Below, piece after piece: positions 4,398 through 41,236 of a stretch of 64,000 nt of DNA; the first letter of the stretch is position 1; every line of letters begins with the position of its first letter. The DNA comes from Escherichia coli (GTDB lineage: Bacteria; Pseudomonadota; Gammaproteobacteria; Enterobacterales; Enterobacteriaceae): NCBI RefSeq assembly GCF_050920415.1, contig NZ_CP169309.1. One strand, given 5' to 3'. The position numbers and the translations under genes were made by a program. The notes under the pieces were generated by a model that saw nothing but the letters and a program-made list of their open reading frames with translations, ran no database searches and was not told the origin of the DNA.

Positions 4398-5012
4398 TTA
4401 TCGAAACAGTGGTTTAACCGCGACAGGAATCAACAGTTGTGATTGCCATTGCGCCAGCGTTAAGCGAGCCAGTTCACCCAGCGCACGGTAGAAAGGGTGT
4501 TCTGCTTTTTCGATAAAAACGTCGAGAAAACGTGTTGACCACGGAAAAAGATGCCATGCCAGCAATTCTTCACATTCTGTTTGGCGACCATTCTCCGCCA
4601 ACCACGCAGCCATCAACAGCAGTGAACCAAAATGATCTTCCGGTTCGTTTTGCTTCATTTCGAACTGAATGCCTTTCTCGCGCATCCATTGACGAAGTGC
4701 CAATGTTGAATCGCCAAACAGCACAGATTCGCGATCCAGCCAGACCGACCCCCACGGCGGAGACGGCAGTGCCCACGGGCCGACAAACAAACGCTGCCAG
4801 GCCTGGGCGCGAGTCTCTTCACTCTGTGCCTGAAAAGCCGTCACCAGCGGCGCTAATGACGCTTCTGGTAGAGGCCACTGAGTTTCCCAGCCGTCACTGG
4901 TGAGTACCGCAACCAGAGGTGCGGCTTCCGCACTCTCTGGAGCGTAATAAAACAGCGCGCCCAACACGCGCGCCGCGACAGAAAAATTATCTTGCTGTGA
5001 AAAATGGGTCAT
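4398..5012 (-). CDS. dmsD: Tat proofreading chaperone DmsD
   Basis: 204 aa from Met4 of ORF 4398..5021; recognised DmsD/TorD-family sequence; sits downstream of ynfEFGH. Confidence 0.9.
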   Translation of the reverse strand: MTHFSQQDNFSVAARVLGALFYYAPESAEAAPLVAVLTSDGWETQWPLPEASLAPLVTAFQAQSEETRAQAWQRLFVGPWALPSPPWGSVWLDRESVLFGDSTLALRQWMREKGIQFEMKQNEPEDHFGSLLLMAAWLAENGRQTECEELLAWHLFPWSTRFLDVFIEKAEHPFYRALGELARLTLAQWQSQLLIPVAVKPLFR

Positions 5013-5054: not shown

Positions 5055-5909
5055 TTAACCTGCAATAGCCATTCCTACTGTCATGTGCAGGCCATAAAAG
5101 AGCACACGCCCGATCATCTCACCGCCAAGTATGAGGATTAGCCCCAGAATAAGTCCGGCAACGTGAGGTTCGCGGCGACGAATGAGCGGGCAAAGCCAGC
5201 ATCCAAGACCTGCGCATAACAATACCACACGCCAGACCTGTAAGGAGGCGTAATCTGGTACCAGTGCGCTGGCTTGTTGCACGGATGAGTGAATAGACGC
5301 CAGAGACAAACCTTGCAGCACAATCACCCCGGCACAAGCGATCAGCGCCAGAACGCTAATGATGGCAAATGGTGTGGTATTAAATGTAACGCGAGCTGCC
5401 CGCAGAATTGCGGCAGCAAGTATTGGACCGCTCAACAATACCGTCAGGAAGAAAGCTAGCGTAGTGTAACCGTTATGCCAGGTTGGCACGGTGTCGATTT
5501 GATACACGCAGGTCATCATCCAGACGAAAATGACGCCGAGCGCCATGCTGACAAGTAACCAGAGTTTCCCCAACGCTTGCGGCATTTTACCGATGACCGC
5601 CACCAGCCACCATAGTCCGCCAACGGCAAAAAATATGGAACCGGCAGCAATCTCGTTACTCAGACCAGAAGCTCCGATTCGATTCAGCGAGTTAAACGCT
5701 CGCAGTGGCGATCCCAGGTGCATGACAGAGGCAATAAACCCGATGCCCATCAACAGCCAGAGGAAAAACATGCCACGGACAATACGCTGACGGTCTGCGT
5801 CATTTTTGGCGGCGAACCAGCCAATTCCGCTAACAATCAGCGCGCCTACTACGCATTGACCCAATACGGTAAAGATAACCAGTGGCCATTCATGCCATCC
5901 ATTTCCCAT
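5055..5909 (-). CDS. ynfH: DMSO-reductase-type membrane anchor subunit (DmsC paralog)
   Basis: 284 aa starting at internal MGNGWHEWPL of ORF 5055..6524; hydrophobic multi-TM protein. Confidence 0.85.
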   Translation of the reverse strand: MGNGWHEWPLVIFTVLGQCVVGALIVSGIGWFAAKNDADRQRIVRGMFFLWLLMGIGFIASVMHLGSPLRAFNSLNRIGASGLSNEIAAGSIFFAVGGLWWLVAVIGKMPQALGKLWLLVSMALGVIFVWMMTCVYQIDTVPTWHNGYTTLAFFLTVLLSGPILAAAILRAARVTFNTTPFAIISVLALIACAGVIVLQGLSLASIHSSVQQASALVPDYASLQVWRVVLLCAGLGCWLCPLIRRREPHVAGLILGLILILGGEMIGRVLFYGLHMTVGMAIAG

Positions 5910-5910
5910 T

Positions 5911-6524
5911 TTACACTTCCTCCGGATTAGCCAGATAACCAGTGGTATCGCCGGTCGGCTGTTGGCGTTAGGTTTGATAACGATATTGGGTTTTGTGAAA
6001 TGCGCGCGCGGCAGTGGCGCGACGGCAGCCAGAGTGCCGTGCTTCTGGCGCAGCTCTTCAATTGGACCGAACTCAAGTGCACGCAGCGGGCAGGATTCGA
6101 CGCATATGGGTTGTTTCCCCTCGGCGACGCGCGAATAACAACCATCGCACTTCGTCATGTGCCCTTTTTCAGCATTGTACTGTGGTGCGCCGTACGGACA
6201 AGCCATGTGGCAGTAGCGGCAGCCGATACAAACATCTTCATCAACCACCACAAAGCCATCTTCACGCTTATGCATTGCGCCGCTGGGGCAGACTTTTGTA
6301 CATGCGGGGTCATCGCAATGGTTACAGGAGATGGAGAGATAATAAGCGAACACGTTCTGGTGCCAGACGCCATTATCTTCCTGCCAGTCGCCGCCAGCGT
6401 ATTCATAAATACGGCGGAAACTGACTTCCGGGCCAAGATCTTTAAAATCTTTGCACGCCAGTTCGCAGGTTTTACAGCCTGTACAGCGGCTGGAATCGAT
6501 AAAAAATCCATATTGTGTGGTCAT
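5911..6524 (-). CDS. ynfG: 4Fe-4S ferredoxin subunit (DmsB paralog) with apparent C-terminal frameshift that fuses the reading frame to ynfH
   Basis: Four CxxCxxCxxxCP clusters; ORF track reads through into ynfH (489-aa fusion ORF); the alternative frame from about 5950 encodes the expected tail ...DTTGYLANPEEV and stops at a TAA overlapping the ynfH ATG. Confidence 0.7.
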
Positions 6525-6534
6525 GGGCTACTCC

Positions 6535-8961
6535 TTAAACCTTTTCGATCTGGACGAGATTGCTGTGCGACGGGTTTCCCTTTGCCAGCGGTGAAGGGCG
6601 GTGAGAGGTCAGAATATTGATACTGCCGCCGTGATCGACCCGGTCACCAAACATATCCGCTTTAAGCCACGCACCTTGCCCGATGGCGGTAACGCCAGGC
6701 AGAATACGCGGAGTCACTTTTGCGGCAATCAGCATTTCTCCATTATTGTTAAATACCCGCACGGTATCGCCATGACGGATACCGCGTGCCTGAGCATCAA
6801 TGGGGTTGATCCACACCTCTTGTGGGCAGGCCTGCTGTAACACATCAATATTGCCGTAGCTGGAGTGGGTACGCGCTTTGTAGTGGAAGCCCGTTAACTG
6901 CAGTGGATAGGTTTTCCGCAGGGGATCGTCCCAGCCATCAAAACCTGGGGTATACGCAGGAAGGGGATGAATAATTTCATCTTTTTTCAATTCCCAGGTA
7001 TCTGCAATCTTCGCCAGTCGTTCAGAATAAATTTCGATTTTCCCCGAAGGTGTTTTCAATGGGTTTGCCTGTGGATCTTCACGGAATGCGCGGAAAGCGA
7101 CGTAATGTTCTTCCGGGCATTTTTTCTTAAAGATCCCGGTCGTTTTCATCTCCTCGTAGTCCGGCATCTCAGGGTTACGTTCCTTCGTTTTCGCATGGAG
7201 ATATTTGATCCATTCATGCTGACTGCGACCTTCAGTAAAGGTTTGATAAACGTCTGGTCCTAAGCGTTTCGCGACTTCACTCAGCATCCAGTAGATGGGT
7301 TTGCGTTCAAATTTTGCTGAGGTTGCGGGTTGGGCGAGGATCACATAGCCCATATTCCCTGCAGATTCATGAGAGATAAGGTCTTCTTGCTCTGTTGGCA
7401 TCAGGTCGGGCAACAGGATATCGCAATACTTAGCCGAGGCCGTCATGAAGTGGTCAATGCCAACAATCATCTCGCACTTGCTGTCATCCTGAAGCACCTC
7501 ATGGGTGTGATTGATGTCGCCATGTTGATTGATCAATGTGTTACTGGCGTAGCACCATAAAAACTTGATGGGGACATCCAGTTTTTCTTTTCCACGAATA
7601 CCATCACGGGTCGCGGTCATTTCCGTACCGTGGTCGATGGCATCTGTCCATGTAAAGACGGAAATCTGCGTTTTAACAGGATTATCAAGCATCGGGAACC
7701 ATTCGACCCCCAGATCCCAGCTACCTTCGCGTACACCTGAGTTGCCGCCGTTTATGCCGACGTTACCGGTGAGAACGGAAAGCATGGCAATAGCGCGGGA
7801 CGTTTGCTCGCCGTTGGAGTGTCGTTGTGGCCCCCAACCCTGACAAATATAAGCAGGTTTTGCTGAACCGATCTCTCGTGCCAACTGGATAATTTTTTCT
7901 GCCGGGATGCTGGTGATTTTTGCTGCCCATTCCGGCGTTTTAGCTATGCCGTCAGGCCCTTCGCCCAGAATATAGGCTTTATAATGCGCGTTACGTGGTG
8001 CGTTGGCGGGCAGCGTTTTTTCATCGTAACCAACACAATATTTGTCGAGAAATGGCTGATCGACCATGTTTTCCGTAATCAGTACCCAGGCAATCGCACA
8101 GGCCAGTGCGCCATCGGTGCCAGGGCGAATGGGCAGCCATTCATCTTCACGCCCGGCAGCTGTGTCGTTATAACGTGGATCAATGACGATCATGCGTGCG
8201 TTTGAACGTTCGCGGGCTTGCTCGACGTAGTAAGTGACACCACCGCCGCTCATCCGGGTTTCTGCCGGGTTATTTCCGAACATAACGACCAGCTTCGTAT
8301 TGGCGATATCATCCGGGCTGTTGCCATCATTGGCACCGAACATATAACTCATTGCGGCACTGATCTGTGCGGTACTGTAGCTGCCATAGCGACTGAGAAA
8401 ACCACCACAAGAGTTCATCAGACGGTACGGGACGTTTGAGTTGGTGATGTTTCCGCCATCTACGCCTGTTCCATAGAGAACATGTACAGCCTCATTGCCG
8501 TAATCTTTTAGGATCCGCCGAAGATTATCACTGATGGTCTCCAGGGCTTCGTCCCAACTTATCCGTTCAAATTTACCTTCACCGCGCTTGCCGACGCGCT
8601 TCATGGGATATTTCAACCTATCAGGATGATTCATCCGTCGGCGGATAGAGCGCCCGCGTAAACAGGCGCGAACCTGATGATTACCGTAGACGTCGTCACC
8701 TGTCGTATCAGACTCCACCCAGTACACAGTGTCATCTTTCACATGCAAACGTAACAGACAGCGGCTCCCGCAGTTAACGGTGCAGGAACTCCAGACCGCT
8801 TTCTCTTCTACCGGAGCCTCTGCCGCTCGGACCATTTGGGAAAATGGCAGAGTGAAAGCACTGCTTGCCAGCGCGAGACTGCCAAGTGCGGAGGTTTTCA
8901 TCAGACTTCTACGGCTGATTTCAGCCTTCATGAGCGCCTCTGTGGTATGGATTTTCATCAT
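6535..8961 (-). CDS. ynfF: Tat-exported molybdopterin oxidoreductase catalytic subunit (DmsA paralog)
   Basis: 808-aa ORF; twin-arginine signal (SRRSLMKTSALGSLALA); N-terminal Cys cluster; Mo-bisPGD domain. Confidence 0.95.
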   Translation of the reverse strand: MMKIHTTEALMKAEISRRSLMKTSALGSLALASSAFTLPFSQMVRAAEAPVEEKAVWSSCTVNCGSRCLLRLHVKDDTVYWVESDTTGDDVYGNHQVRACLRGRSIRRRMNHPDRLKYPMKRVGKRGEGKFERISWDEALETISDNLRRILKDYGNEAVHVLYGTGVDGGNITNSNVPYRLMNSCGGFLSRYGSYSTAQISAAMSYMFGANDGNSPDDIANTKLVVMFGNNPAETRMSGGGVTYYVEQARERSNARMIVIDPRYNDTAAGREDEWLPIRPGTDGALACAIAWVLITENMVDQPFLDKYCVGYDEKTLPANAPRNAHYKAYILGEGPDGIAKTPEWAAKITSIPAEKIIQLAREIGSAKPAYICQGWGPQRHSNGEQTSRAIAMLSVLTGNVGINGGNSGVREGSWDLGVEWFPMLDNPVKTQISVFTWTDAIDHGTEMTATRDGIRGKEKLDVPIKFLWCYASNTLINQHGDINHTHEVLQDDSKCEMIVGIDHFMTASAKYCDILLPDLMPTEQEDLISHESAGNMGYVILAQPATSAKFERKPIYWMLSEVAKRLGPDVYQTFTEGRSQHEWIKYLHAKTKERNPEMPDYEEMKTTGIFKKKCPEEHYVAFRAFREDPQANPLKTPSGKIEIYSERLAKIADTWELKKDEIIHPLPAYTPGFDGWDDPLRKTYPLQLTGFHYKARTHSSYGNIDVLQQACPQEVWINPIDAQARGIRHGDTVRVFNNNGEMLIAAKVTPRILPGVTAIGQGAWLKADMFGDRVDHGGSINILTSHRPSPLAKGNPSHSNLVQIEKV

Positions 8962-9018: not shown

Positions 9019-11206
9019 TTATATTTTTTCGATCTCGACCAGATTAGTGTGCTGCGGGTTTCCCTTCGCCAGTGGTGAAGGGCGCAGAGTGGTTAGCGTA
9101 TTCACACAGCCGCCGTGGTCGATTTTATCGCCAGACATATTGGCCTCGTGCCAGGCTCCCTGGCCCATAGCGCTAACTCCAGGGAGAATGCGTGGTGTCA
9201 CTTTGGCTGGTAGCCGAACTTCGCCACGATGGTTAAACACCCGCACCATATCGCCGTTGGCAATCCCACGTTTCTGTGCATCTATAGGGTTGATCCACAC
9301 TTCCTGACGGCAGGCTGCCTTCAGGACATCAATGTTGCCGTAGGTCGAGTGAGTACGAGATTTGTAATGGAAACCAAACAGTTGTAGCGGGAAGGTACTA
9401 CGTTCAGGGGCGTCCCAGCCTTCGAAGGTTGAGGCATAAACCGGCAGTGGGCTTATTACTTCATCTTTTTCGAGTTCCCAGGTACGGGCAATTTCCGCCA
9501 GTTTGCTGGAATAAATTTCGATCTTACCGGAAGGCGTTTTAAGTGGATTTGTCTCGGGGTCGTCACGAAATGCTTTGTAGGCGATAAAATGACCATTAGG
9601 ATCCTTACGCTTATAGATACCCATTTTTTTCAGTTCGTCGTAAGACGGTAATGCCGGATCTTTGGCAAGCATTTTGGCGTACAGATGTTGTAACCATTGT
9701 TCCTGAGTGCGGCCTTCAGTGAATTTTTGATAGACGTCAGGGCCAAGACGTTTCGCGACTTCACTTAGGATCCAGTAAATCGGTTTGCGTTCGAATTTTT
9801 CGCTGGTGACTGGCTGGAGGAAAATGAGATATCCCATGTTACCGGCGTAATCGTTAGGAATAATATCTTCCTGCTCAACGGTCATCAGGTCTGGCAGCAG
9901 AATGTCGGCATATTTTGCCGATGAGGTCATAAAGTTTTCGATGACCACAATCATTTCGCATTTCGATTCGTCCTGCAGAATTTCATGCGTTTTGTTAATG
10001 TCAGAATGCTGATTAACCAGGGTATTTCCCGCGTAGTTCCAGATGAACTTAATGGGCACATCCAGTTTATCTTTGCCGCGGACGCCGTCGCGGATTGCCG
10101 TCATTTGCGGGCCATGATCGATAGCATCCGTCCAGCTGAAGCAGGAGATTGATGTTTTGACCGGATTATCCAGCACCGGCAGGCGTTCTATGGTAATGGT
10201 ATAGGTGGATTCACGCGCGCCACTATTTCCGCCGCTGATGCCGACATTGCCCGTCAGAATAGGCAACATCGCAATAGCGCGTGCGGTCAGCTCACCGTTT
10301 GCCTGGCGTTGCGGTCCCCAACCCTGGCAGATATAAGCGGGTTTTGCTGTGCCGATTTCACGCGCCAGTTTGATGATACGGTCCACCGGGATACCGGTAA
10401 TTTGCGAAGCCCACTGCGGCGTTTTCGCTGTGTTATCATCACCTTCACCAAGAATATAGGCTTTATAGTGGCCATTTTTTGGTGCATCTGCGGGTAAGGT
10501 TTTTTCGTCATAACCGACGCAGTATTTATCGAGAAAAGGTTGATCAACGAGATTTTCGTTAATCAATGCCATCATTACTGCCGTAGGTGTAGGGCATGGC
10601 ACAGGAAATTTGCGCGGTGCTGTAGGAGCCATACTGGTTGAGTGAACCGCCGTAGCAGTTCATCAGGCGTTTGACCGCCGAGGCTGATGGCGAAGAGCGG
10701 GTCATATTGCCGCCAACGATCCCCGAAGAGTACTGAATATATACAGCCTCATTGCCATATTGTTCGACGGTTTTTTTCAGACTACTGGCGATAGTATCCA
10801 GGGCTTCATCCCAGCTAATCCGTTCGAATTTGCCTTCGCCGCGTTTGCCCACGCGTTTCATTGGGTAATTCAAGCGATCGGGATGATTAATACGCCGACG
10901 GATGGACCGACCGCGCAAACAGGCGCGTACTTGATGATTGCCATACTCGTCGCTGCCGGTGTTGTCAGTTTCCACCCAGGTGACTTCATTATCTTTAACA
11001 TGTAGACGAAGTGCACAGCGGCTACCACAGTTGACGGAACAGGCACCCCAGACCACTTTTTCGCTGGCCTGTTGTACCGCTGCCGCTGCACTGCGCAGGG
11101 TGAACGGTAAAGAAAAACCGCCTGCAGCCAGCGCCAGAGAACCTATCGCGGTAGATTTAACGAGTGTTCTGCGGCTGATGCCCACCATTTGTTCATTTTT
11201 GGACAT
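9019..11206 (-). pseudogene. ynfE: DmsA paralog ynfE disrupted by an internal deletion of about 240 bp with frameshift
   Basis: Two ORFs (10559..11206, 215 aa with Tat signal; 9019..10632, 537 aa) in different frames; alignment to adjacent paralog ynfF shows about 80 residues missing between ...YTYGSNDG and LINENLVDQPF; junction near 10560-10570. Confidence 0.8.
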
Positions 11207-12530: not shown

Positions 12531-13091
12531 CTATTGTGCGGTCGGCTTCAGGAGAGTCTGACCCGGTGTTTTGTGCTCTGCCAGATACTGATGCTGGAAT
12601 ATGCACATGCGAATGGCATTCCGATATTGACCATTAATAAAGAACTCATGCATCAATTCACCTTCAACCGTAAAGCCAAGCTTGCGGTAAATGTGAATCG
12701 CTTTTTCATTCTCTTTATCGACGATCAGATACAGCTTATAGAGATTGAGAACGGTGAAGCCATAGTCCATTGCTAATTTTGCAGCACGCGTTGCCAGACC
12801 TTTCCCCTGATATTCCGGGGAGATAATTATCTGAAATTCTGCGCGGCGATGAACATGGTTAATTTCCACCAGCTCCACCAGACCGGCTTTTTCGCCGTCA
12901 CATTCCACCACAAAGCGCCGTTCGCTCTGATCGTGAATATGCTTATCGTACAGATCAGAGAGTTCAACAAAGGCTTCGTAGGGTTCCTCAAACCAGTAAC
13001 GCATCACACTGGCGTTATTGTCGAGTTGATGTACATAGCGTAAATCTTCACGCTCCAGCGGGCGTAGCTTAACACTGTGGGCGCTTGGCAT
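12531..13091 (-). CDS. speG: spermidine N1-acetyltransferase
   Basis: 186-aa GNAT acetyltransferase; recognised SpeG sequence. Confidence 0.95.
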
Positions 13092-13125
13092 AACGTGTCC
13101 TTACATTCCTTAAATCAATAACAGG

Positions 13126-13467
13126 TTAGGGGGTAATAACGCGGCCAGTTCGACGGTCCAGGCAGCGCAAAGTATTTGGCTCCCAGTAGGCATTGATATT
13201 GGCGCTTTGCTCACATTTATCGCGGTTATCAAAAGCGGCGTCGGCTTTATCCCACTCTTTTTCAGTGCGTTTATTCACTTTCTGGCGCAGATTGCGCGTG
13301 TCATTCCATTGCTCTTTTTCCATAGCGGCGTGCTGGCGGCTTTGTGCACTGTCGCCAGACTCAATCACCAGTTTGTTAGTTTCGGCATGAACAGTTGTGC
13401 TCAATGCCAGTGCGCAAGGCAGCAGAAAAGCGAGCAGGCCAATTCGTTTGCTGAGAGTAATTTTCAT
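13126..13467 (-). CDS. ynfB: UPF0482 secreted protein
   Basis: 113-aa ORF with signal peptide; synteny. Confidence 0.85.
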
Positions 13468-13601
13468 AATTCATTCCCTGTATGAATGATTAAAGGTGAT
13501 TCTACACCATCCACTGCGAACGCAAAACGTACCAGGAGGATGTTTATATTGATGATATTATGTCGTCCTATAACTATACATGATGTCAATAAGTGACAAA
13601 G

Positions 13602-13928
13602 ATGATTAAAACAACGTTACTATTTTTTGCTACTGCGCTGTGTGAAATTATTGGATGCTTTCTGCCCTGGTTGTGGTTGAAACGAAACGCCAGTATCTGG
13701 CTGTTGCTTCCGGCGGGGATTTCTCTGGCACTGTTTGTCTGGTTGTTAACGTTGCATCCTGCGGCGAGTGGGCGTGTTTACGCGGCTTATGGTGGCGTTT
13801 ATGTCTGCACGGCGTTGATTTGGCTGCGCGTTGTGGATGGCGTGAAACTGAGTCTTTATGACTGGACGGGGGCGTTGATTGCGCTTTGCGGCATGTTGAT
13901 CATTGTTGCGGGCTGGGGGCGCGCGTAA
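13602..13928 (+). CDS. ynfA: UPF0060 small membrane protein
   Basis: 108 aa from Met4 of ORF 13593..13928; four hydrophobic segments. Confidence 0.85.
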
Positions 13929-14133
13929 GGACATAAATCCATTTTATCAATAAGATACAAGGAAGTGTCAGCTGACAAAAGGTATTCTATTTCATCTTTT
14001 GTCAACCATTCACGGCGCAAATATACGCCTTTTTTTGTGATCACTCCGGCTTTTTTCGATCTTCATACTTGTATGGTAGTAGCTCAGTTGCGTAGATTTC
14101 ATGCATCACGACAAGCGATGCAAGGAATCGAAC

Positions 14134-15348
14134 ATGAAGATCGTAAAGGCTGAAGTTTTTGTTACCTGTCCGGGGCGTAATTTCGTCACATTAAAAATCA
14201 CCACTGAGGACGGTATTACGGGCCTTGGGGATGCCACCCTCAATGGACGTGAGCTTTCCGTGGCCTCTTATTTGCAGGATCACCTTTGTCCGCAGCTTAT
14301 TGGTCGCGATGCACAGCGTATCGAAGATATCTGGCAGTTTTTCTATAAAGGTGCTTACTGGCGTCGCGGTCCGGTGACGATGTCGGCCATTTCAGCGGTT
14401 GATATGGCGTTGTGGGATATTAAAGCCAAAGCTGCCAACATGCCGCTTTACCAGTTACTCGGCGGCGCGTCTCGTGAAGGGGTGATGGTTTATTGCCATA
14501 CCACCGGTCACAGTATTGATGAAGCTCTGGATGATTATGCCCGTCATCAGGAGCTGGGATTCAAAGCCATCCGCGTGCAGTGCGGAATCCCTGGTATGAA
14601 AACCACCTACGGCATGTCGAAAGGCAAAGGTCTGGCTTATGAACCCGCAACCAAAGGACAGTGGCCGGAAGAGCAGCTGTGGTCGACGGAGAAATACCTC
14701 GATTTCATGCCGAAATTGTTTGACGCGGTACGTAACAAGTTTGGTTTTAATGAACATTTGCTGCATGACATGCACCATCGCTTAACGCCTATTGAAGCGG
14801 CGCGCTTTGGTAAAAGCATTGAAGATTATCGCATGTTCTGGATGGAAGACCCGACGCCTGCGGAAAACCAGGAATGCTTCCGTCTCATTCGCCAACATAC
14901 CGTCACACCCATCGCGGTGGGTGAAGTCTTCAACAGCATCTGGGACTGCAAACAGCTGATTGAAGAACAACTTATCGACTATATCCGCACCACGCTGACT
15001 CACGCGGGGGGGATTACCGGTATGCGCCGGATTGCCGATTTTGCTTCGTTGTATCAGGTACGTACTGGCTCACACGGTCCTTCCGATTTGTCACCAGTCT
15101 GCATGGCTGCGGCGCTGCACTTTGATCTGTGGGTCCCCAATTTCGGTGTCCAGGAATACATGGGCTATTCCGAACAAATGCTCGAAGTCTTCCCGCACAA
15201 CTGGACTTTCGATAACGGCTATATGCATCCGGGAGACAAACCGGGTCTTGGCATCGAATTCGATGAAAAGCTGGCGGCGAAATATCCCTATGAACCTGCT
15301 TATCTGCCAGTCGCACGTCTGGAAGATGGCACGCTGTGGAACTGGTAA
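14134..15348 (+). CDS. rspA: starvation-sensing protein RspA (enolase-superfamily mannonate dehydratase-like)
   Basis: 404 aa from Met12 of ORF 14101..15348; recognised RspA sequence. Confidence 0.95.
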
Positions 15349-16566: not shown

Positions 16567-17847
16567 TTAATTTTTCACCACCTCGTTTTGGGGCATGGTT
16601 GGGGCAAACTCGCTTAGCTGTGTATTTAACAGGGCTACCTGTGCATTATTGTTTTCAGACATCCATTTCCCGTATACCTGAAACACCATTTGCGCATCTG
16701 CATGTCCCATCTGGTTTGCTATGAATGCCGGGTTGGCACCGGCTGTCAACGACCAGCAGGCATAAGTATGTCTCGACTGATATGATTTGCGGTGGCGGAG
16801 GCCAGCGCGCTTTATCGCTGCGTCCCACATCTGCCTTATTGAGTCAACGGTAAAATGGTCACCATAATTTTTTACTCTCGCTGACACTTCAGGTTGAAAA
16901 ACAAAGGTGCATTTTTGTTTTTCTGTTCTGCCGAACTCTCTGAGGTGAACGTCAATAATATGTTCTTTGCTCAGCCTCGTTAGTGTCATCTGACTCCTGA
17001 GAGCGTCGATTGCAGGCTTGATAAGGTGAATTACCCGATTGGTACCAGCCTGTGTTTTCGGTACCGTAAAACGATCTTTTGCTAAATTTCTCCTGATCAT
17101 CATTGTTCCATTTTTCAGATCTATGTCCTCCCACCCAAGCGCACACAGTTCACCAGGGCGAATGCCTGTATAAACAGAAACACACCATAAATTTTTGGCC
17201 TGCTGATTTCTGCAGGCGTCGATAAGACGGATAAATTCCTCCCGTGAAAGAGGATCAGGAATGGTTCTTGATTCCTTTAATGGCGAGATCCCCTTAAACG
17301 GATTATCTGCCAGGTAACCGTTATCAACACCAAACTGGAACACGGCGTTAAGATTTGTCATGTAATTATTTACAGTTACAGCCGATCTCCCTGGTTGTGT
17401 AACAATATAGTTACTTTTGGGGATCTGGTATCCAGTCAGTAGCTCTTTACGAACCTCCAGTAATTTTTCTTTATTAATCGATGAGGCAAGATTTTTTTCA
17501 CCGATTATGCTCAGGATATTTTTGATGACGGCACGGTATGTGTTGAGTGATGCTTTGGCGACTTCAGTTTCTTTCAGTGCCAGAAATTTTTCAGCCAGTT
17601 CTTTTATGGTTAAATCTTGTCGGGCCTCACCAAATTTTTCCAGATTGCGTGAGGAGGGAAACTGTTTTGCATAGTCGAAAACACCAGTTTTTATTGCGTA
17701 ACAAACAGAGGAGCGTAGTTCACCTGCAACGCGCCTGTTTTTTGCTGTGTCAGGAACCCCCAGATTTTCCCTGACTCTTACGCCTTTATAAACAAACCAG
17801 ATACGTAATTTCCCTCCATGGTTTTCCACGCCTGTCGGATATTTCAT
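16567..17847 (-). CDS. int: phage integrase (tyrosine recombinase)
   Basis: ORF 16567..17862; start taken at second ATG (MKYPTG) preceded by purine-rich RBS; C-terminal catalytic domain with conserved R...H-x-x-R...Y; adjacent to att junction. Confidence 0.9.
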   Translation of the reverse strand: MKYPTGVENHGGKLRIWFVYKGVRVRENLGVPDTAKNRRVAGELRSSVCYAIKTGVFDYAKQFPSSRNLEKFGEARQDLTIKELAEKFLALKETEVAKASLNTYRAVIKNILSIIGEKNLASSINKEKLLEVRKELLTGYQIPKSNYIVTQPGRSAVTVNNYMTNLNAVFQFGVDNGYLADNPFKGISPLKESRTIPDPLSREEFIRLIDACRNQQAKNLWCVSVYTGIRPGELCALGWEDIDLKNGTMMIRRNLAKDRFTVPKTQAGTNRVIHLIKPAIDALRSQMTLTRLSKEHIIDVHLREFGRTEKQKCTFVFQPEVSARVKNYGDHFTVDSIRQMWDAAIKRAGLRHRKSYQSRHTYACWSLTAGANPAFIANQMGHADAQMVFQVYGKWMSENNNAQVALLNTQLSEFAPTMPQNEVVKN

Positions 17848-24114: not shown

Positions 24115-24964
24115 AAGCACGGTGTTCGGGGTTTTTTATGAGCAGCAAGCTTCATGGTCTTGTCTGGGAAGGGTGCGCCTTCACCGGCATGATCTTATCC
24201 AGGGTGGCAGTAATGGCTCGCCTTGCAGACTACAGCAATGACGAAGGTGTGTCATGGCCTGCAGTGGAGACCATTCGTCGTCAGATTGGGGCAAAGAGTG
24301 AATCAACGGTTAAAGCGGCGATAGCGGAACTGGAAAAGAACGGCTGGCTGACGAAGGAGGAGCGTAAGGTCGGTGGGCGTAATGAAAGCAATATCTACCG
24401 CCTTAATGTGGAAAAACTCGAAGCAGCAGCTGAGGCGGCGCGTGAGGCATATAAACCGAAAAGAAAAATTAGCCCGGCAAAAAATGACCCGTTAACAGTT
24501 GACCAGTCAAATATTGCCCCCTCAACGGTTGACCCGTCAAATTTTGATGGATCAACCGTTGGTAAAAAACAGCCGGTTAGGGGGGCGATGGTTGGCCCCG
24601 ATCCGTCAGTATTAAAACCTGATCCGTCAGATAAAAGATCTTTTCGTCCGGAAGCTTCGCAACCGGACCCGCAGACGGCTGAACAGGATTTTTTAACCCG
24701 ACATCCTGATGCGGTTGTGTTTAGTGCAAAAAAACGTCAGTGGGGAACTCAGGAGGATTTGGCATGCGCACAGTGGATCTGGGGGCGAATCGTGAGTCTT
24801 TACGAACAGGCCGCCAGCGATGATGGCGAGATCACCCGACCGAAAGAACCCAACTGGACAGCATGGGCCAATGACGTGCGCATAATGCGGATGCTGGATG
24901 GCAGAACTCACAGACAAATCTGTGAACCGCCCCGGGTTTCCTGGAGAGTGTTTTATCTGTGAAC

Positions 24965-25831
24965 TCAGGCTGCCAGATCATTGTTTCCGATGGAAGCATA
25001 ATAAGCTTTTTCTGCTTCTGCCGGAGGAGTATGGCCCAGCCTTCCCAGCAATCGTCGATTGTTATACCAGTCCACCCACGTGAGTGTGGCCAGTTCCACT
25101 TCTGCACGGTTTTTCCAGCTCTTACGGTGTATTACCTCCGCTTTGTAAAGACCATTGATGCTCTCAGCCATCGCGTTGTCATACGAGTCGCCTGTACTCC
25201 CTGTTGATGCCAGCAGTTTTGCTTCTTTTAGTCGCTCCGTATAGGCCAGTGACACATACTGAGAGCCTTTATCGCTGTGATGGATGGTGCCAGACGGACG
25301 ACGGGCCCACAACGCCTGCTCCAGCGCATCCAGCACGAATGTCGTTTCCATAGACGATGAGACCCGCCACCCCACGATGTATCCGGCAAACACATCAATG
25401 ATGAACGCCACATAGACGAAGCCCTGCCATGTGCTGACGTAAGTAAAATCAGCCACCCACAGCTGGTCAGGACGTTCTGCCACGAACTGACGGTTTACGC
25501 GGTCACCTGTGGCAACGGTTTTCCGGCTGACGGTAGTGCGGACCTTTTTACCCCGGAGAACACCGGCAAGTCCCATAACCGCCATGAGGCGCGCCACTGT
25601 ACATCTGGCCACCCTGATTCCTTCCCGTAACAACTGACGCCAGACTTTACGCACACCGTACACCTGATGATTTTCATCGTATACGCGCTGTATCTCTCTC
25701 TTCAGCCAGTCATCGCGCTGCGCACGGGCACTGCGTTTATCAGGATGATGCCGCTGCTGCTGACAATGGTAATACGTTGACGGGGCAATATGCAGTTCAC
25801 TGCATACCGGTCCGACCCCCGTACTGCTCAC
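24965..25831 (-). CDS. IS3-family transposase OrfB (DDE integrase domain)
   Basis: 288-aa ORF with DDE catalytic region; expressed as OrfAB by -1 frameshift. Confidence 0.85.
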   Translation of the reverse strand: MSSTGVGPVCSELHIAPSTYYHCQQQRHHPDKRSARAQRDDWLKREIQRVYDENHQVYGVRKVWRQLLREGIRVARCTVARLMAVMGLAGVLRGKKVRTTVSRKTVATGDRVNRQFVAERPDQLWVADFTYVSTWQGFVYVAFIIDVFAGYIVGWRVSSSMETTFVLDALEQALWARRPSGTIHHSDKGSQYVSLAYTERLKEAKLLASTGSTGDSYDNAMAESINGLYKAEVIHRKSWKNRAEVELATLTWVDWYNNRRLLGRLGHTPPAEAEKAYYASIGNNDLAA

Positions 25832-25852
25832 GCAGCTTATCCAGCAGTGGCA

Positions 25853-26179
25853 TTATTTTTTCCAGAGGCGGTCGAACTCCGCCTTCGCAAAATAAGCGGA
25901 AGCCTGGCGAAGGATATCGTTACTGCGGCGCAGTTCACGATTTTCACGTTCCAGCTCTTTCAGACGCTGACGTTCAGCGGTGGTGAGCCCACCATCACCG
26001 CTCCCGGTATCCCTCTCATGCTGGCGAACCCAGACACGCAGAGTCTCTGGCGTACAGCCAATCTTTGGAGCAATGGAACAAATTGCCGCCCATTGTGAGT
26101 CATATTCGCCCTGACTTTCCAGAACCATACGAACTGCGCGTTGACGGACTTCGGGGGAAAAACGAGTATTTTTAGTCAT
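25853..26179 (-). CDS. IS3-family transposase OrfA (HTH and leucine zipper)
   Basis: 108 aa, [19 protein letters not shown]...; recognised IS629-type OrfA. Confidence 0.85.
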
Positions 26180-26454
26180 CCTGTTTACCTCTTTCTCAGG
26201 AAGTTTAGTCTCCAGGATTTCCGGGGCGGTTCACTGCGAAATGTTTGGTCGGGTACAGCGGGATCCATTCTGGGTAAAAAACATCATGAGCCCGTCAAAA
26301 CTTCGCGATAAATGGGATGAGCTGGTTATCCGTCTGGGGCGTTCGCCTGTACAGCGTTGTGTGAATCATATTTCTGAACCTGACACCGAAATTCCACCAG
26401 GGTTCAGGGGGTAGGTATTGATTTCAGATCATGAGGTAATTTTCAGGAGGACTT

Positions 26455-39562: not shown

Positions 39563-39726
39563 TTCAAAAAACGAAAGAACGGAGGTACGTATGTACGCAC
39601 TGAAAAAGATTACGGTAACTGAAGATGGTCGTCAGTAGACTGGCCCCCTGAATCTCCAGACAACCAGTATCACTTAAATAAGTGATAGTCTTAATACTAG
39701 TTTTTAGACTAGTCATTGGAGAACAG

Positions 39727-40092
39727 ATGATTGATGTCTTAGGGCCGGAGAAACGCAGACGGCGTACCACACAGGAAAAGATCGCAATTGTTCAGCAGAG
39801 CTTTGAACCGGGGATGACGGTCTCCCTCGTTGCCCGGCAACATGGTGTAGCAGCCAGCCAGTTATTTCTCTGGCGTAAGCAATACCAGGAAGGAAGTCTT
39901 ACTGCTGTCGCCGCCGGAGAACAGGTTGTTCCTGCCTCTGAACTTGCTGCCGCCATGAAGCAGATTAAAGAACTCCAGCGCCTGCTCGGCAAGAAAACGA
40001 TGGAAAATGAACTCCTCAAAGAAGCCGTTGAATATGGACGGGCAAAAAAGTGGATAGCGCACGCGCCCTTATTGCCCGGGGATGGGGAGTAA
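39727..40092 (+). CDS. insC: IS2 transposase InsC (OrfA)
   Basis: 121 aa from [18 protein letters not shown]...; recognised IS2 InsC. Confidence 0.9.
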
Positions 40093-40955
40093 GCTTAGTC
40101 AGCCGTTGTCTCCGGGTGTCGCGTGCGCAGTTGCACGTCATTCTCAGACGAACCGATGACTGGATGGATGGCCGCCGCAGTCGTCACACTGATGATACGG
40201 ATGTGCTTCTCCGTATACACCATGTTATCGGAGAGCTGCCCACGTATGGTTATCGTCGGGTATGGGCGCTGCTTCGCAGACAGGCAGAACTTGATGGTAT
40301 GCCTGCAATCAATGCCAAACGTGTTTACCGGATCATGCGCCAGAATGCGCTGTTGCTTGAGCGAAAACCTGCTGTACCGCCATCGAAACGGGCACATACA
40401 GGCAGAGTGGCCGTGAAAGAAAGCAATCAGCGATGGTGCTCTGACGGGTTCGAGTTCTGCTGTGATAACGGAGAGAGACTGCGTGTCACGTTCGCGCTGG
40501 ACTGCTGTGATCGTGAGGCACTGCACTGGGCGGTGACTACTGGCGGCTTCAACAGTGAAACAGTACAGGACGTCATGCTGGGAGCGGTGGAACGCCGCTT
40601 CGGCAACGATCTTCCGTCGTCTCCAGTGGAGTGGCTGACGGATAATGGTTCATGCTACCGGGCTAATGAAACACGCCAGTTCGCCCGGATGTTGGGACTT
40701 GAACCGAAGAACACGGCGGTGCGGAGTCCGGAGAGTAACGGAATAGCAGAGAGCTTCGTGAAAACGATAAAGCGTGACTACATCAGTATCATGCCCAAAC
40801 CAGACGGGTTAACGGCAGCAAAGAACCTTGCAGAGGCGTTCGAGCATTATAACGAATGGCATCCGCATAGTGCGCTGGGTTATCGCTCGCCACGGGAATA
40901 TCTGCGGCAGCGGGCTTGTAATGGGTTAAGTGATAACAGATGTCTGGAAATATAG
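40050..40955 (+). CDS. insD: IS2 transposase InsD (OrfB, DDE)
   Basis: 301-aa ORF; recognised IS2 InsD; overlaps insC for -1 frameshift fusion. Confidence 0.9.
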
Positions 40956-41236
40956 GGGCAAATCCAGTCAGGTTGAGGAAGTGCATGTCCTGGGGGGATA
41001 TGTATCGTATGGAGTTTTACCCGCGTAATACCCATCTGGCAGCAAAAATTGAGTATTGCCGGAACGGGAATATTTCATGTTTGCAGGTAGAGAAAACGGA
41101 TGAGGCTTATATCACTACGCTGAACGGCGATACGATGTCAGCGCCAATGATATAAGACAGTAATTCACCATTTGGATTGTCCGCTCCACCCAACATGTTG
41201 TTTCCTTAAGGTTCCTACACCACAAAGGGAACACTC

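Follow-up and report, generated by a model that had tools for sequence, protein, structure and literature searches.

The ynfG gene in this Escherichia coli DNA carries a 4-base deletion close to its 3' end that runs it into ynfH, and the two genes share one open reading frame (ORF) of 489 amino acids. Very probably this is an inherited deletion, fixed in a sublineage of Escherichia cryptic clade I, and one loss-of-function hit in a decaying ynf operon. The ynfG-ynfH fusion is ordinary gene decay. The event would have consisted of the loss of one CCGN unit from the run CCGC-CCGA-CCGG, most likely through slippage or a microhomology-mediated process, and the deleted allele would later have become fixed in one clade I sublineage. 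With the frame shifted after codon 191, the ribosome would enter the frame of the ynfH start, and translation would continue across 14 nonsense residues and on through the whole of YnfH to give the 489-residue fusion. The same sublineage also carries a 239-bp deletion in ynfE, and its ynf selenate-reductase operon appears to be decaying.

Throughout, the window is the whole stretch of 64,000 nucleotides that was analysed, and positions are numbered from its first letter. The features of the ynf operon in the window are listed below.

4398..5012, minus strand: dmsD, last gene of the operon, intact (ORF list, related-record annotation)
5055..5909, minus strand: ynfH, DmsC-family membrane anchor, intact, with eight hydrophobic segments (related-record annotation, hydropathy scan, Pfam DmsC)
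5055..6524, minus strand: YnfG-YnfH fusion ORF, 489 aa (ORF list)
5910..5951, minus strand: 14 out-of-frame linker codons, AIPLVIWLIRRKCK, joining the ynfH ATG (translation)
5911..5955, minus strand: native YnfG tail, now out of frame, TGDTTGYLANPEEV followed by a stop (translation)
5911..6524, minus strand: ynfG, frameshifted, pseudogene by annotation, with its four-cluster ferredoxin core intact (PGAP, TIGR02951)
5919..5923, minus strand: GGAGG, putative ribosome-binding site, 9 nt upstream of the ynfH ATG (read from the sequence)
5955..5958, no strand assigned: junction of the 4-base deletion, placement ambiguous (alignments with intact alleles)
6535..8958, minus strand: ynfF, molybdopterin subunit, intact (808-aa ORF, annotated intact)
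9019..11206, minus strand: ynfE, with a 239-bp deletion, split into ORFs of 215 and 537 aa (alignment with strain 2017-02-2CC, ORFs, PGAP 'frameshifted')

The ORF list and the translation confirm the claim of the first-pass annotation that a single 489-aa ORF spans ynfG and ynfH. It comprises residues 1-191 of YnfG, 14 out-of-frame linker residues (AIPLVIWLIRRKCK) and residues 1-284 of YnfH, which is full-length YnfH. Translated in the ynfG frame, 5911..6524 on the minus strand ends in ...NSRPAIPLVIWLIRRKC without a stop. The tail TGDTTGYLANPEEV and its stop, read in the other frame, are identical to the C-terminus of the intact YnfG of strain WCHEC020031; the DmsB-type tail proposed for this frame was right. 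In a nucleotide alignment of the window with WCHEC020031, exactly 4 bases are absent, AACAG[CCGC]CCGACCGG. Either one or four missing bases had been proposed, and the alignment settles the number at four, not one. On the minus strand, CCGN occurs three times in the intact allele (CCGC-CCGA-CCGG) and twice in the window. Four placements of the deletion are equivalent, owing to a 3-base CCG microhomology that can be read at the site. Slippage at a short repeat, as initially suggested, is plausible, and the microhomology is the only feature that points to it. Tandem Repeats Finder called no array in the intact allele, where the 12-nt run of three CCGN units is too short to score.

The TAA of ynfG (5913-5911) and the ATG of ynfH (5909-5907) had been described as overlapping, but a single base, position 5910, lies between them. 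With this spacing, any net -1 shift late in ynfG reads into ynfH. A fusion ORF is the default outcome of such shifts and is thus a predictable by-product. A protein search returned about 20 other fusion ORFs of 444-493 aa in E. coli, Shigella, Klebsiella and Salmonella, with different shifts. These sporadic fusions resemble that of the window in forming one ORF of about 490 aa, a consequence of the ynfH start one base past the ynfG stop. They differ from it in that other mutations at other positions are involved, most are singletons and some retain the whole native tail, whereas the window allele is shared by a lineage. For example, the Shigella sonnei protein P0012 (...PEEVKMGNG..., 11 contigs) is a stop-loss allele that, unlike the window, keeps the entire YnfG tail, and the E. 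coli read-through fusions P0009-P0011 contain ...PEECKMGNG.... The proteins P0003-P0023 are independent YnfG-YnfH (or DmsB-DmsC) read-through ORFs that arose from different frameshifts. In some of the singletons the shift, by one base, falls within the CCGCCCGACCGG stretch; these may reflect sequencing errors.

The ferredoxin part of the protein is complete. The NCBIfam equivalog model for the B subunit of DMSO/selenate family reductase complexes, TIGR02951 (DMSO_dmsB), aligns to residues 4-163 along its whole length (positions 1-161 of 161) with 261.9 bits, against a curated cut-off of 214.1 bits. The window protein thus belongs to the DmsB/YnfG equivalog family, and a full-length match above the cut-off means that none of the four cluster-binding motifs is damaged. 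Up to residue 191 the protein is that of intact YnfG (WP_000213028.1), which is the DmsB-type subunit, a four-cluster ferredoxin, in the YnfEFGH selenate reductase. The two proteins differ beyond this point, as the last 14 residues, TGDTTGYLANPEEV, are replaced in the window and there is no stop before ynfH.

The replaced tail is conserved. We aligned stand-alone DmsB-like representatives at no more than 50% identity and found V, L or I at YnfG position 199 in 52 of 55 representatives, N at position 201 in 39 of 53 and E at position 204 in 40 of 52. Most stand-alone and fused homologues have the resulting DmsB-type tail motif, [VLI]-x-N-x-E-E followed by V, I or L. The window protein has WLIRRKCK at that place and lacks the motif. 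No structure of DmsB or YnfG turned up in a search of solved structures, where EbdB, PcrB and PsrB came closest; their alignments stop short of the last ~11 tail residues, conserved motif included.

The linker that replaces the tail has a hydrophobic patch of nine residues and reaches a Kyte-Doolittle mean of at most 0.83 over 19 residues; it is not expected to add a membrane span. Four K/R residues in the linker stand directly before the first transmembrane segment (TM1) of YnfH, a place where native YnfH has no positive charge. Work by Weiner et al. in 1993 is said to have placed the N-terminus of DmsC in the periplasm. YnfG is exported folded, together with the catalytic subunit that bears the Tat signal (PMC5203670). 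Its attachment to a polytopic protein through a linker with positive charges should interfere with export as well as topology. We infer a loss of ynfG function on these sequence grounds, because the conserved tail motif is gone, because RRKCK puts positive charges before a helix whose N-terminus is normally periplasmic, because a Tat-exported Fe-S domain would be tethered to a polytopic membrane protein and because the ynfE deletion co-occurs.

The deletion is rare among complete genomes. A 70-nt query across the junction was run against complete E. coli genomes, of which 5317 carry the stretch. It matched one of them at 100% (MFDS1022581, NZ_CP169399.1). The remaining 5316 matched at 94.6%, corresponding to 70 of 74 positions; they retain the four bases lost in the window and encode the regular tail TGDTTGYLANPEEV, which supports a frameshift in the last 14 ynfG codons and read-through into ynfH, as first described. 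No other length variant of the site was found among the 5317 genomes, so the site is not a general hotspot. Relative to intact orthologues of the same species the frame of the window ynfG is broken, which makes it a frameshifted pseudogene in the sense of PGAP. The ynfG of MFDS1022581 (ACE00D_RS12350), at matching coordinates, is labelled 'frameshifted' by PGAP, as is its ynfE. The comparison with other E. coli that had been proposed thus yielded only one genome with the sequence of the window, and its ynfG is not annotated as intact. The lesion is already known in the form of this pseudogene label in public annotation.

MFDS1022581 is closely similar to the window. Only three SNPs separate them in the first 24.9 kb, none of them in the ynf operon, and both have the identical 4-base deletion at an equal position relative to ynfH and the identical ynfE lesion. 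MFDS1022581 differs in lacking the IS3-family element and the IS2 that are present in the window, and the last 23 kb of the window (the prophage end) is 99.39% identical to it. In view of the two IS-sized insertions and the 99.39% end, the window is not the MFDS1022581 record, and the lesion is present in two separate genomes. A lambdoid prophage fills the window from ~16.5 to 64 kb. The IS3-family element, at 24927-26233, interrupts a prophage helix-turn-helix gene that starts at 24138, and the IS2 lies at 39636-40966. In the prophage part of the related MFDS1022581 record (L004:6277-8551 and 13078-14678), four more coding sequences (CDS) are labelled 'frameshifted': a hypothetical gene, IS21 istA and istB, and a portal protein gene.

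The deletion is inherited. The exact 489-aa protein was found in at least 61 contigs (75 index blocks) of a public protein collection, and the GenBank accessions include E. coli M863, E. coli 1.2741 and two BDI-prefixed records. Three independent assemblies, GCA_000194575.2, GCA_002965625.1 and the Logan assembly of SRR31942419, differ from the window by 0-1 SNP over 12.5 kb; each has the fused ORF and a ynfE in two ORFs. The nearest genome with intact genes is that of strain 2017-02-2CC, which differs from the window at 289 SNPs over 17 kb. Apart from the 4 bp of ynfG and the 239 bp of ynfE, this comparison shows no internal indels; a 3-base gap at position 16998 lies at the alignment end and was not counted as internal. 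M863 belongs to Escherichia cryptic clade I (PMC4182557). In EC42405, a complete clade I genome (PMC10100065), ynfG (WP_000213028.1) and ynfE are both intact, so the lesions mark a sublineage and not all of clade I. In one sub-branch (P0002, 12-13 contigs), the 4-base-deleted allele has also lost its first 26 ynfG codons, which are replaced by a prophage end. The junction corresponds to 6446/6447 of the window; identity to the window begins at 6446, and an integrase gene lies immediately upstream. At one locus (L009:5800-7016), the prophage end replaces the 5' end of ynfG and everything upstream within the 7 kb fetched.

A second lesion affects the operon itself. The junction of the 239-bp ynfE deletion is at 10566/10567, with no obvious microhomology. 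A 70-nt query across this junction was of little use, as BLAST bridged the 239 bp in intact genomes, and the deletion was defined by alignment instead. It was present in every examined carrier of the 4-base ynfG deletion. The main catalytic subunit in Salmonella is YnfE, with a small contribution from YnfF (PMC5203670). The disruption of ynfE in the same sublineage therefore suggests that the ynf operon is decaying, and the two lesions, together with the third in the P0002 sub-branch, fit this picture. Against it stand the intact ynfF, ynfH and dmsD genes and the complete ferredoxin core of YnfG. The YnfH half has eight segments with a Kyte-Doolittle mean above 1.6 and belongs to the DmsC/YnfH family (PF04976); precomputed Pfam matches of the fusion product are Fer4_11 and DmsC (PF04976). 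Free YnfH may be made by independent initiation, as the GGAGG near its ATG would allow. The pN/pS values between the window and 2017-02-2CC are 0.03-0.15 for ynfF, ynfG and ynfH, in a comparison that mostly predates the lesion and has little power. No relaxed selection was visible in these three genes by this measure, given its low power and the recent lesion.

On a different reading, the gene is no pseudogene: its fusion product is synthesised and, alongside YnfF, functions or is at least tolerated as a single subunit for both electron transfer and anchoring. We consider this unlikely, although fusions with this layout exist in nature. Natural DmsB-DmsC fusions are common among distant DmsB-like proteins: of the long proteins examined from the 150 best DmsB-like cluster representatives, 34 or more have a YnfH-like C-terminal half. 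They are ~450-525 aa in length (P0146, P0149, P0155 and others). P0146 (489 aa) has Fer4_11 and DmsC domains, and the gene for P0149 (488 aa) follows that of a 778-aa molybdopterin subunit. Fused architecture alone is therefore not a sign of a non-functional protein. The window protein, for its part, has the complete Fe-S core and all eight hydrophobic segments of YnfH, and its ORF is unbroken in each of the contigs that carry it. However, these carriers are near-identical, and an ORF that persists among them is uninformative about selection.

The comparison with the natural fusions weighs further against a working subunit. These proteins, from uncultivated bacteria, resemble the window in placing a DmsB-like ferredoxin before a DmsC-like eight-helix anchor at similar length. 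They are old and diverged (no more than 50% identity), whereas the window allele occurs only in near-identical genomes. They also keep the tail motif, which is followed by a linker of 8-14 residues and then by a helix like YnfH TM1, whereas the window allele destroys the motif. The fusion in the window arose by recent accident and is like them in its domain order alone. At the one natural locus examined (L012:3127-7467), the fusion gene follows a molybdopterin subunit gene, and this A subunit has no twin-arginine signal peptide. This hints at a cytoplasm-facing enzyme without an export conflict, unlike the E. coli fusion. The deletion of ynfE in the same lineage and the loss of the ynfG 5' end to a prophage in a sub-branch also speak against a functional fusion. 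Literature searches on DmsB-DmsC fusions and on DmsC topology found nothing relevant. It is very unlikely, in our judgement, that the clade I sublineage expresses the fusion and that the product joins YnfF in a membrane complex, whether working or dominant-negative. If this were so, the allele would be a natural experiment indicating that the tethering of a Tat-hitchhiking Fe-S subunit to its polytopic anchor is possible, as in the natural DmsB-DmsC fusions. A functional fusion would also bear on how Tat-exported Fe-S subunits assemble with membrane anchors.

It is highly improbable that the deletion is a sequencing or assembly artefact. Such errors would not be out of place here, as the site is G+C-rich and repetitive, MFDS1022581 has six 'frameshifted' CDS over the stretch equivalent to the 64-kb window, and several singleton fusion ORFs in other assemblies have 1-base shifts in the CCGCCCGACCGG stretch. 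Nevertheless, the 4-base and 239-bp deletions occur together in independent assemblies with accessions of their own, namely GCA_000194575.2, GCA_002965625.1, the Logan assembly of SRR31942419, complete genomes and the window, which makes the resequencing first proposed as a check superfluous. Moreover, the 17 kb compared with the nearest intact genome show no scatter of homopolymer errors or small indels.

Correction of the shift by programmed ribosomal frameshifting, such that normal YnfG is still made, hardly merits belief: it was considered only because the native tail is open in the other frame and no support for it was found, the tail is in frame in 5316 of 5317 genomes so that the arrangement is not a conserved one, inspection of the site revealed no known +1 shift signal, and a residue would be lost even with a perfect shift.

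An inherited deletion in a decaying operon thus accounts best for the fusion. The ynfG deletion marks out one lineage within Escherichia cryptic clade I. Annotation pipelines differ at this locus, where some report a 489-aa 'DMSO reductase' protein and others a pseudogene. The carriers, some of which are food or animal isolates, are predicted to have lost Ynf-dependent selenate reduction.
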